64,000 nucleotides of DNA from contig CP070758.1 in the NCBI GenBank assembly GCA_020348925.1, forward strand, positions 4,525,775-4,589,774. Reading direction: 5' to 3'. Below, piece by piece: positions 25,455 through 28,566 of this stretch (position 1 is the stretch's first letter; every line of letters begins with the position of its first letter). Under the pieces are notes generated by a model that had not been told where the DNA came from, ran no database searches, and saw only the letters and a program-made list of their open reading frames with translations. Both the position numbers and the translations under genes were made by a program. The DNA is from Gemmatimonadota bacterium (GTDB taxonomy: Bacteria; JBHIER01; G020348925).

Positions 25455-26174
25455 TCAGTCTTTCAATTCCGGGTATTCGTGACGCTGCATCACCTCAGGT
25501 GTATTCGTGTTTGCTCCTCTGGTTGATAAGAGTTTTGATACTGGATAGGCTTCCATTTTTTCAGGATCAAACGGTTTGAAGAAGGATTGAATATCGTCCT
25601 GGGTCATTTCATTCTTGAGCCAATCTCTCTCTCGTTCTCGGCGAATGAGAACGGGCATTCTCTTTTTCGTATTATGGATTTTTTCCATGAGTGTATTTGC
25701 TGCTGTCGTTATGATCGAAAATGTACGGATTGTTTCTCCGTTCTCTGGAATCGTCCAGGCATCCCATATTCCAGCCAGGGAGAATATGTCATGCTCCAAA
25801 AGCGTTATGTAATAGGGATATTTTTTCTTTTCGACATGCCTCCACTCAAAAAAACCATCAACAAGAACGAGACAGCGTTTTATTCGTATCGAATGTTTAA
25901 ACGACGGTTTTTCGAAGATGGTCTCCGATCTGGCGTTCAGAGTTTTCGTCCTGAATGACTTGGCCGTCTTTTTGTTTTTGACCCACTGGGGTATGAGGCC
26001 CCATTGAAAGAATTGAATCGCATCCGGTTCTTGATTTGAAATAATAGGGAGGAGGGGGAAAGAGAACCCGGAGGCATGGTAGATCGGTCTGAACACAGGC
26101 GGTTCAACGAATTTTGCGTTGAACCGATTCTCTATGCTTTCCCTGTTTTGATCGAGGGATATGTTGTAGCACAT
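25455..26174 (-). CDS. SOS response-associated peptidase (SRAP; YedK/HMCES abasic-site-protecting family)
   Basis: N-terminal Cys2 (MCY), WGLIP, NARSET, RCLVLVDGFFEW, IH...RMP. Confidence 0.92.
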   Translation of the reverse strand: MCYNISLDQNRESIENRFNAKFVEPPVFRPIYHASGFSFPLLPIISNQEPDAIQFFQWGLIPQWVKNKKTAKSFRTKTLNARSETIFEKPSFKHSIRIKRCLVLVDGFFEWRHVEKKKYPYYITLLEHDIFSLAGIWDAWTIPENGETIRTFSIITTAANTLMEKIHNTKKRMPVLIRRERERDWLKNEMTQDDIQSFFKPFDPEKMEAYPVSKLLSTRGANTNTPEVMQRHEYPELKD

Positions 26175-26269: not shown

Positions 26270-26836
26270 CTATTCATTCGGAAACGTTTCCTGGATACCA
26301 TAGTTTTGTGTTCTTGCATCCTCGAATAGAAATATGTGGGGTGGATAGTAGGTGAACATTGAAAATGCTGCTATCAACATAACCATCACTATTACTGCAC
26401 AGAGTTTTGCAGGAGGACTTTTCTCCGGGGCAGTTAAGAGTTTGTAACTTACGAGTTGTCCAATGGCTATTGAGATGAAAAATATTGCAATGTCAGCTGA
26501 TAAGTAGTGGCGGCCTGTGATTGCTGTATACCCATAGAACATCACCACAATGACGAAGGGCATTGTAAGCAGTCCCGAGGTCTTCGCCAACCAGAAATTA
26601 TGTGCCACCTTCTTGGTGCATGGATATTCGATGAGGGCGAAGAGCATTCCAGGCCAGAAAGCAAGCTTGAGGTGTTCCCAGACGCTTTCGTTGACGGCGA
26701 ATATGAACGCTCCTGGTGGCCATCGGCCTACCCACTCAAATGTGAAATGGAATAAGGAGCCAACAATAAAAATAAAAACCAATCCCGACAGTTCCCATTT
26801 CAGCACAGAGTTCTGTTTTTTGGAAATCCGGTTCAT
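26270..26836 (-). CDS. Conserved membrane protein (DUF6512-like)
   Basis: GSLFHFTFEW...VNESVWEHLKL...FTYYPP..LFED; about 6 TM helices. Confidence 0.75.
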   Translation of the reverse strand: MNRISKKQNSVLKWELSGLVFIFIVGSLFHFTFEWVGRWPPGAFIFAVNESVWEHLKLAFWPGMLFALIEYPCTKKVAHNFWLAKTSGLLTMPFVIVVMFYGYTAITGRHYLSADIAIFFISIAIGQLVSYKLLTAPEKSPPAKLCAVIVMVMLIAAFSMFTYYPPHIFLFEDARTQNYGIQETFPNE

Positions 26837-27046
26837 TTCTTCAAGTTTCAGTTTACAGCAGGTAAGCGTTTCTCCTCAACTGAGGATTGATTTAATCTGT
26901 AGTTGGTATCATTGTCATTTACGAAATAATCGGAAATCTCTAATATTCGTAAACATATCCTTCAATTCTTCAGATTTTATAGAAGTAATGTTTAATAGGA
27001 GTAATGACTATCAAAGACATTATGTTAGAAAGTCAATAGGTATGGT

Positions 27047-27104
27047 AGTCTCCTTTCTTTAATTTAGAGATGTAAGCGTACACACTCACAAAGAAAGGAG
27101 GACT
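27047..27104 (+). promoter_or_regulatory. Hairpin sequestering the transposase Shine-Dalgarno sequence
   Basis: AGTCTCCTTTCTTT (27047-27060) is complementary, with one bulge, to AAAGAAAGGAGGACT (27090-27104), which contains the RBS of ATG 27108. Confidence 0.7.
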
Positions 27105-27107
27105 CCC

Positions 27108-28178
27108 ATGTGTACAAGTAAAGGTATAGATTTTTCAGGTCAAGATTTTTTTCTTGGTCTGGATGTTCATGCCAGGCAATGGAGGGTCACCATTCGGTAT
27201 CATGACATGGAGTTAAAGACCTTTTCTATGGATCCGTCTCCTTCTATTCTGGCCCGGCACATGCATCGCCACTATCCCGGTGGTCGATCCCATAGCGTCT
27301 ACGAAGCCGGATTCTGTGGATTCTGGATTCATCGAGAACTGAGTAGGCTGGGCTTTGATAATATCGTCGTTCATCCTGCCGATGTGCCGACTTCCAATAA
27401 GGAGAAGGACAGGAAAAGCGACGCGGTCGATAGTCGCAAGCTGGCCCGGGAACTGGCAAGCAAGAAGCTCAAGGGCATTTACGTTCTCGACGAGTTCCAT
27501 GAGCAGCTCAGATCGCTGGTCAGGCTGCGAGGCAAGATCACGACCAACAGCACTCGGGTGAAAAATCGCATCAAAAGTTATCTGTATGTGAACGGGATTG
27601 CCATCCCTCCTCGCTCAGAGTGTTCTCACTGGTCAAATAATTTCATTCGGTGGTTGGAGAACTTGGAGTTCGCCTTTCCGGCTGGAAGTCAATACCTGAG
27701 GCTGTGTATCGACGAACTCCGTTATCACCGTCAGCAACTGACTCAGGTGACCACATCCCTGCGGACATTGGCCCGGTCCTCTGGAATCAACCATATCATC
27801 GAGCTCCTCCGTTCTGTACCAGGCATCGGCTTTGTCACAGCTATCACCTATTATGCTGAACTGGTCGACATGGATCGTTTCGCCGGGGCAGACCGTTTGG
27901 CCGGCTTCGTCGGTTTGGTCCCTTCCGTTTCCGGTTCTGGTATCACGGAGCATGTCCGAGGGCTCACCAAAAGACGAAACCGATATCTGCGATATCTGAT
28001 CATTGAAGCTGCCTGGAGGGCTATCCGCAAGGATGAGGCCCTCTTGTATAGCTTCAATCAGTTGACGAAACGGATGAAAAAACAAGAAGCCATCATCCGT
28101 ATTGCCAGGAAACTGCTCAACCGACTTCGCTCCGTCTGGAGAAAGGAGATACCATACCGCCCAGGTGTCATGGCCTAA
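27108..28178 (+). CDS. IS110-family transposase/recombinase (DEDD RuvC-like plus Tnp_20 domain)
   Basis: GLDVH, YEAG, KSDAVDS (DEDD); SVPGIG, GLVPSVSGSG (Ser loop), RYLIIEAAW, IARKL. Reading frame intact. Confidence 0.95.
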   Translation: MCTSKGIDFSGQDFFLGLDVHARQWRVTIRYHDMELKTFSMDPSPSILARHMHRHYPGGRSHSVYEAGFCGFWIHRELSRLGFDNIVVHPADVPTSNKEKDRKSDAVDSRKLARELASKKLKGIYVLDEFHEQLRSLVRLRGKITTNSTRVKNRIKSYLYVNGIAIPPRSECSHWSNNFIRWLENLEFAFPAGSQYLRLCIDELRYHRQQLTQVTTSLRTLARSSGINHIIELLRSVPGIGFVTAITYYAELVDMDRFAGADRLAGFVGLVPSVSGSGITEHVRGLTKRRNRYLRYLIIEAAWRAIRKDEALLYSFNQLTKRMKKQEAIIRIARKLLNRLRSVWRKEIPYRPGVMA

Positions 28179-28204
28179 ACCTGATAAGGAACCATCAGCC
28201 TACC

Positions 28205-28340
28205 GTGTGGACCGCTTCATGATTATCTGCAAGTCTACCGGACTTGTTTTTCAAAGACTGCGGCCACACACTGCACGATCTGATAATGACCTGCGGCTCT
28301 GAAGCTTTCAGATGTCCGCTCATAACAGTATGATGGGTGC
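28205..28340 (+). ncRNA. Putative bridge/seek RNA (target-binding and donor-binding loops)
   Basis: Two consecutive stem/internal-loop/hairpin units whose loop strands match the element's own flank and end sequences (see findings). RNA boundaries are approximate. Confidence 0.7.
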
Positions 28341-28466
28341 TTAGCGGGTTTGCACTTTTCAGAGAACAAGAAAAACCAGACGATGTCTCACCAACATCTC
28401 AGGAAGGAGTACACCCTGTCCGAAAAAATCGTCAAGAAATCTCTTGACTTTCTACATAACAGATAA

Positions 28467-28566
28467 NNNNNNNNNNNNNNNNNNNNNNNNNNNNNNNNNN
28501 NNNNNNNNNNNNNNNNNNNNNNNNNNNNNNNNNNNNNNNNNNNNNNNNNNNNNNNNNNNNNNNNNN
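28467..28566. other. Assembly gap (100 N)
   Basis: Run of exactly 100 N; the sequence on the right starts mid-gene. Confidence 0.99.

Follow-up and report, generated by a model that had tools for sequence, protein, structure and literature searches.

The stretch of DNA analysed here, 64,000 nt of a Gemmatimonadota bacterium genome and called the window below, holds at positions 27015-28462 of the + strand an insertion sequence of the IS110 family and IS1111 type, consisting of a transposase gene, a non-coding right end and subterminal inverted repeats. The gene (27108-28178, +) encodes a DEDD transposase of the IS110 family of 356 aa. It matches the Pfam families DEDD_Tnp_IS110 (PF01548, 3.5e-09) and Transposase_20 (PF02371, 2.3e-19), as well as the NCBIfam model NF033542, 'IS110 family RNA-guided transposase', with 193.9 bits against a cut-off of 140. 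Its nearest relatives of solved structure in the PDB are distant: ISCro4 (E = 1.8e-07), with which the first aspartate and the KSDAVD motif align, and IS621 (E = 6.7e-06), whose match covers the C-terminal part. The translation also contains GLVPSVSGSG, which is the IS1111 motif GL-P----SG of the C-terminal domain. The gene is flanked by 93 nt of non-coding DNA on the left (27015-27107) and 284 nt on the right (28179-28462). A long non-coding region 3' of the gene, subterminal inverted repeats and a GL-P----S(t)G motif are traits reported for IS1111-type elements (PMC11187229). Here the inverted repeat, which is subterminal, joins 27020-27036 to 28444-28459 over 16-17 nt with one indel; repeats of about 7-17 bp are typical of the group. 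Because of this repeat and the GL-P----SG motif, we place the element in the IS1111 group.

The genome is assembled as one scaffold with 205 gaps of 100 N each, and one of these gaps (28467-28566) hides the right flank of the copy in the window. The remaining copies of the element are partial, each lying at the edge of a 100-N gap. They supply three further right ends (L003, L004 and L007), two left ends (L002 and L005) and an odd internal piece (L006). The element is a collapsed repeat, present at least four times in the genome and probably behind several of the assembly breaks.

The left end of the element, which forms the right half of the donor (27017-27036, +), begins with the variable bases ACAT (27017-27020), followed by a TATGTT box (27021-27026) that is conserved in homologues; the inverted-repeat arm TTATGTTAGAAAGTCAA spans 27020-27036 and pairs with 28444-28459. 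An AG dinucleotide immediately precedes this end (27015-27016), and AG stands 4 nt before the TATGTT box in 58 of the 69 loci that could be parsed; the three left ends in this genome have T-ATCAA-AG in common. The right end, or left donor half (28444-28460, +), contains TTGACT (28444-28449) and the other inverted-repeat arm (28444-28459) and finishes with CATAAC (28455-28460). It is followed by AG at 28461-28462, which is common to the other right ends L003, L004 and L007. Of 34 distinct right ends, 29 have a TTG 12 nt before their final 5 nt. When the two ends are joined as CATAAC-AG-ACAT, TTGACT (28444-28449) and TATGTT (27021-27026) would form a -35/-10 pair with a 17-nt spacer, going by the hexamer consensus that the search tool gives, and a promoter arising at the circle junction has been reported for IS1111-type elements (PMC11187229). 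We place the crossover at the AG (27015-27016 and 28461-28462) because AG is invariant in 30 of 30 aligned modules of the second RNA loop described below, because of the spacing between AG and TATGTT at the left end, and because of the 17-nt promoter spacer.

The left and right junctions of the genome copies share not only AG but also conserved flanks. We take the copies to be alike beyond their ends because the element inserts into a conserved site, so that target sequence would be common to them as well. A search of this genome for the empty target site, allowing up to 3 mismatches in 20 nt, gave 0 matches. Two other placements of the boundary were rejected. Ends at a TA dinucleotide (27009-27010 and 28464-28465) had been placed where the genome copies diverge, but the conserved target sequence is also common to the copies, the guides of the first loop and the locus L008 put the crossover further in, and the -35 and -10 boxes would be 27 nt apart. 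A CA/ACA core would give a 13-nt spacer between the boxes and lies outside the invariant AG.

Some homologues differ from this arrangement. The right end of L061, about 320-350 nt past the stop codon, reads CTGGAAAG and then, 1 nt later, TTGTAAAG; the guide in its second loop matches TTGTAAAG, the second of the two, and the element looks as if it adjoins the remnant of a related right end. In Bacteroidales loci such as L044, L030 and L067, the joined ends put a TTG-containing box about 20 nt from a TATGTTTG box, an arrangement that we take to resemble the two-box Bacteroidetes promoter type rather than sigma-70, and the junction promoter may be adapted to the host.

The right non-coding end encodes two consecutive loops of similar layout on the + strand. 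Loop 1 (28205-28270) has an outer stem formed by 28205-28215 and 28260-28270, a hairpin at 28229-28247, a 5' guide strand ATGATTATCT (28219-28228) and a 3' guide strand TTCAAAG (28250-28256) that is followed by AC at 28257-28258. Loop 2 (28273-28340) is enclosed by an outer stem whose 5' arm GCACGATC (28273-28280) pairs with the 3' arm GATGGGTGC (28332-28340) in the minimum-energy fold, and its inner hairpin (28293-28319) folds at -11.0 kcal/mol. Between hairpin and outer stem lie a 5' guide, ATAATGACC (28283-28291), and a 3' guide, CATAACAG (28321-28328). An earlier reading made from the sequence alone had described these outer arms, this hairpin and both strands, and all of them are present where it had put them.

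That reading had further proposed that the loop-2 strands match the ends of the element. Indeed, the 3' guide is identical to the top strand at 28455-28462, and is therefore complementary to the bottom strand, and the 5' guide, complementary to the top strand, agrees with the reverse complement of 27015-27023 (AGACATTAT) at 7 of 9 positions. The extent of the matched sequence needs correcting: CATAACAG corresponds to the final 6 nt of the right end plus the AG core, and the 5' guide to AG and the 7 nt with which the left end begins, so that both matched sequences abut the crossover point. The two mismatches of the 5' guide adjoin the core, one of them opposite the A of the core, and at the variable bases of the left end the guide scores 3 of 4. 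To gauge these matches, we compared them with the rest of the window. CATAACAG occurs 4 times in the window as a whole against 1.31 expected, and only 8 of 62193 segments of 11 nt have an exact 8-mer in common with the final 12 nt of the right end; for the left end, 1223 of 62190 segments of 12 nt reach 7/9 when set against the reverse complement of its first 13 nt. Taken singly, the 3'-strand match is rare and the 5'-strand match, at about 2%, is marginal; the latter is given weight because of the homologues.

A scan of one genome per species yielded 79 homologous loci at 42-57% protein identity, mostly from assemblies of KSB1, Calditrichota, Ignavibacteria and Bacteroidales. Seventeen non-coding regions that were aligned have the same two-loop layout. 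Defined as a four-pair stem, a T and then a strand with AG at positions 7-8, the loop-2 module was found in 69 of 80 sources (the 79 loci and the window), the module of L028 being reset by hand; of the 11 sources in which the pattern was missing, two have no downstream DNA and nine do not fit it. The AG at positions 7-8 of the strand that follows the inner hairpin is the one that is invariant in the 30 aligned modules. In the window and in the homologues, both loops have the guide order of IS1111, with the guide complementary to the top strand 5' of the guide complementary to the bottom strand.

The 5' strand of loop 2 was compared with the left end in a fixed register, taking the 9 nt before the hairpin (with one spacer base) against the reverse complement of AG, 4 nt and TAT. 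The left end could be anchored in 58 of the 69 loci, giving 31 distinct pairs of guide and end. At the four variable bases of the left end, 108 of 124 positions were complementary and every one of the 31 pairs scored 3/4 or 4/4, against a mean of 1.5 of 4 when guides were paired with foreign left ends. This sum was reached by 0 of 20000 permutations, a test that ignores relatedness; sliding the register by 1-3 nt, a control that keeps relatedness, gave only 27-43 of 124. The guides change together with the ends, as with ATAT opposite ATAT (L016), CCAT opposite ATGG (L023) and GGAA opposite TTCC in many Bacteroidales.

The 3' strand behaves in the same way. Positions 2-8 of the 3' guide were sought in the downstream DNA of their own locus, and among 63 loci this 7-mer was matched at 7/7 in 30, 6/7 in 26, 5/7 in 6 and 4/7 in 1; guides taken from loci with a different guide reached 7/7 in 38 of 2134 pairings. 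Variant guides occur with matching variant ends: ATAAGAG (L012), ATAATAG (L015), ATAGAAG (L050, L054, L082 and L084), ATAGTAG (L077), TGTAAAG (L061) and the TGGAAAG and TGGGAA groups. Misses include L028 and L063 (5/7 each) and L062 (6/7). The right end was also placed independently of the guide, by means of the left inverted-repeat arm, in 38 loci that give 23 distinct pairs. In this comparison 85 of 115 positions agreed with the 3' strand, a total reached by 0 of 20000 permutations and contrasting with 22-44 of 115 after register shifts. Fourteen of the 23 pairs scored 5/5 and 8 scored low; we attribute the low pairs to the search for the inverted-repeat arm having landed elsewhere, automatic detection having taken other repeats in several loci, and in L010 and L016 the guide search gives an exact end with a TTGACT box next to it. 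Conservation of the donor ends within subfamilies means that the 31 and 23 distinct pairs overstate the number of independent changes, and relatedness inflates the permutation tests; the register-shift control, which keeps relatedness, still separates cleanly. Homologues with different ends that kept the same loop strands would have spoken against the sequence-only reading, and the opposite was seen: variant ends come with variant strands.

Loop 1 follows the target. The reverse complement of its 5' guide, AGATAATCAT, matches AG plus the right flanks at the right junctions of the other copies in this genome (9/10 in L003, 8/10 in L007 and 7/10 in L004), and its TTCAAAG agrees with the common left flank ATCAAAG at 6 of 7 positions. 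For the homologues, we used as a query the reverse complement of the right-junction dinucleotide (the core) plus 7 nt of right flank. Among 47 distinct queries, 9 were matched at 9/9 and 12 at 8/9 in the non-coding DNA that precedes loop 2, in every case immediately 5' of the first hairpin, and foreign queries reached 9/9 in 1 of 2062 cases. Within loop 2, target flanks were not enriched (own mean 5.2, foreign 5.3-5.45). The alternative assignment of loop 1 as the donor loop, considered on the ground that its 3' strand contains TCAAAGAC, was rejected: TCAAAGAC is the conserved left target flank. The 3' strand of the target loop extends beyond AG by 2 nt, and these agree with the opening 2 nt of the left end at 35 of 50 positions (25 distinct pairs; 0 of 20000 permutations), a handshake-like match with AC on both sides in the window. 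In loop 2 the reciprocal signal is weak (23 of 70 positions, reached by 266 of 20000 permutations).

Taken together, sequence matches, covariation with the ends and stems that keep pairing through change form the basis of our interpretation. We consider that 28273-28340 is very probably, at roughly 0.88, the donor-binding loop of a two-loop bridge RNA (a long seekRNA) that this IS1111-type element encodes on the + strand of its right non-coding end. This is the function that the sequence-only reading had proposed, and it gains from both loop-2 strands tracking the ends in homologues and from target flanks matching loop 1; because of these two observations the RNA would be bispecific, with loop 1 reading the target and loop 2 the donor. 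By analogy with published work on IS621 and IS1111, which is the source for transcription, protein binding and catalysis, the ends would abut after excision of the element as ...CATAAC-AG-ACATTAT..., giving a predicted circle junction of ...TTGACTTTCTACATAAC-AG-ACATTATGTT. Loop 1 would read the target in the same way as loop 2 reads these joined ends, and the DEDD transposase would recombine donor and target at AG.

The working RNA might instead be a short seekRNA in which loop 1 is the sole loop. In that case the protein would find the ends by way of the subterminal inverted repeats and nothing would depend on the loop-2 matches, with loop 2 still present in the DNA and perhaps in a long precursor. 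Such a reading draws on the tested IS1111 members, for which the predominant co-purified RNA is reported to be 82-96 nt with longer forms scarcer (PMC11187229), and on the overlap between the matched end sequences and the conserved inverted repeat. Against this, the loop-2 strands vary, in a fixed register, together with the variable end bases, which is unexpected without selection for pairing, and 69 of 80 sources, at 42-57% protein identity, retain the module and its stems. We regard a loop-1-only RNA as unlikely.

The structure of the module also supports a donor-binding loop that acts as RNA. The stretch 28200-28366, which contains both loops, folds better than 200 of 200 shuffles (z = -3.24), and 30 of 50 distinct inner hairpins have z below -2. 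When 30 modules were aligned with MAFFT and folded with RNAalifold, the base of the inner stem alone was recovered, with 6 pairs, 4 of which changed on both sides. One of these pairs is A-U in 16 sequences and G-C in 13, a compensatory change; a different pair, G-C in 23 and G-U in 7, is compatible with the + strand only. The outer stem was poorly aligned by MAFFT and was therefore examined by duplex energy: in 45 distinct pairs of outer flanks, the mean was -6.7 kcal/mol with the own partner and -2.8 with foreign partners (n = 1586; Mann-Whitney p = 4e-10, uncorrected for relatedness).

These observations bear on a second alternative, in which the repeats are internal copies of the ends that serve as transposase sites at the DNA level and not as RNA guides. 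Insertion sequence ends often carry repeated protein sites, and CATAACAG is a direct repeat of the right end, located 127 nt upstream of it. Yet the repeats sit in a conserved stem-loop-stem in which compensatory and G-U changes preserve the pairing, the second repeat has the inverse orientation at a symmetrical position, and loop 1 has the same architecture but reads the target, all of which makes a role as DNA sites very improbable. That the matches in the window arose by chance is hardly credible, since, although about 2% of random segments equal the 5'-strand match alone, the 3'-strand match is so rare and both recur with covariation in the homologues.

One suggestion of the sequence-only reading was not borne out. 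For the stems proposed as possibly accessory at 28379-28433, folding is no better than in shuffled sequence (z = -0.29, with 73 of 200 shuffles doing as well), and this stretch gave no alignment among the 17 non-coding regions compared. A search of 26800-28468 against Rfam 15, with E up to 10, found no matching family, and no intrinsic terminator was found after loop 2 on the + strand. One metatranscriptome run, from a wetland, contained 13% of the sampled words, and its contigs, 90-99% alike, cover 27518-28389. The one hint of transcription is a contig from a relative that spans 28226-28389, including loop 2, with 11 differences; DNA carry-over could have produced it, and strand, transcript ends and expression are not readable from it. 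This relative (run X1) has G for A at 28289, a mismatched position of the 5' donor guide in the window, and its 3' guide is unchanged over 28321-28331.

We compared the predicted RNA with described systems, starting with IS621, whose bridge RNA has guide strands that both include the core (PMC11208160), with a 2-nt handshake guide after the 3' guides (PMC11208158). In both cases a single RNA would carry two internal loops, one reading the target and the other the joined ends; in each loop, two guide strands pair with opposite DNA strands and overlap at a 2-nt core; and past the core a 2-nt extension, comparable to the handshake guide, matches the non-cognate DNA. The element differs from IS621 in several respects. 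Its RNA lies 3' of the transposase gene, in the right end, rather than before the gene; the order of the guides is reversed, the one complementary to the top strand being on the 5' side in both loops; the core is AG rather than CT; and the inverted repeats are long and subterminal, with a protein that is only distantly related.

The IS1111-family seekRNAs of ISEc11, ISPa11, ISKpn4 and ISPst6 are described with the top-strand match 5' of the bottom-strand match, and in the tested IS1111 elements the predominant transposase-bound RNA is one of 82-96 nt that is described through its target matches (PMC11187229); seekRNA lengths are also tabulated in PMC13604230. With these the RNA at our locus shares its place in the downstream non-coding region, its guide order and matches that overlap in the target, and the elements share subterminal inverted repeats, the GL-P----SG motif and, as predicted here, a promoter at the circle junction (PMC11187229). 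The difference lies in the second loop: the text of that report (PMC11187229) describes seekRNAs through target matches only, whereas here a second loop covaries with the ends. For 93.0% of IS1111 elements a bridge RNA was predicted by Durrant et al. (PMC11208160), and the predictions given for ISCARN28, ISAzs32 and ISPa11 resemble ours in having a right-end RNA with loop nucleotides that match target and donor. According to these authors, the donor-binding nucleotides of many IS1111 orthologues lie in a multi-loop, whereas here they occupy a simple internal loop like that of the target. Bridge RNAs, or long seekRNAs, are a kind of system already described, and the RNA predicted at this locus is a further member.

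The picture of how bridge-RNA systems work is unchanged by this result. What the comparison of about 60 natural relatives supports is that an IS1111-type RNA reads the ends of its own element in addition to the target. It also gives a guide register for this clade (9 nt for the 5' guide, 6 nt plus AG for the 3' guide, AG as the core and 2 nt for the handshake), which is useful for annotating elements in genomes of Bacteroidota, Ignavibacteriota, Calditrichota and KSB1. The family is in addition a source of compact orthologues for the engineering of bridge recombinases.

The homologues revealed an asymmetry between the two junctions. The left junction is AG in essentially all elements, whereas the right-junction dinucleotide of 35 distinct elements (L008-L086) is AG in 18, AA in 5, GG in 4, AT in 4, AC in 3 and TG in 1. 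At the 17 right junctions other than AG, the 5' guide of the target loop reads the same dinucleotide (AA, AT or GG) in 9 and AG in 0. In the 3' strand of the target loop, AG and 2 nt of the left end together make up a 4-nt handshake. Because the donor AG stays on the left and the right dinucleotide follows the 5' guide of the target loop, we tentatively raise the possibility, to which we give clearly less than even odds, that natural copies are footprints of single-strand transfer, in which only the first strand is exchanged and the product is fixed by replication. For IS110-type elements, single-strand insertion or excision is described in two preprints, and if this reading were true, the single-strand insertion reported there would extend to IS1111 elements.

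Two further observations concern the surroundings of the element and its copies. An ORF of 239 aa at 25455-26174 (-) has a translation that begins with MC and, read by eye, looks like an SOS-response-associated peptidase. The odd internal piece L006 (G000:C1:1386941-1387038) consists of 98 nt of the transposase gene, equivalent to 27082-27179 of the window, fused directly to sequence that begins AGATAATCATCAC, a perfect match to the right-flank guide of the target loop. Its right flank is related to that of L003, and the piece may have arisen by aberrant recombination or be a chimera of the assembly next to a gap.
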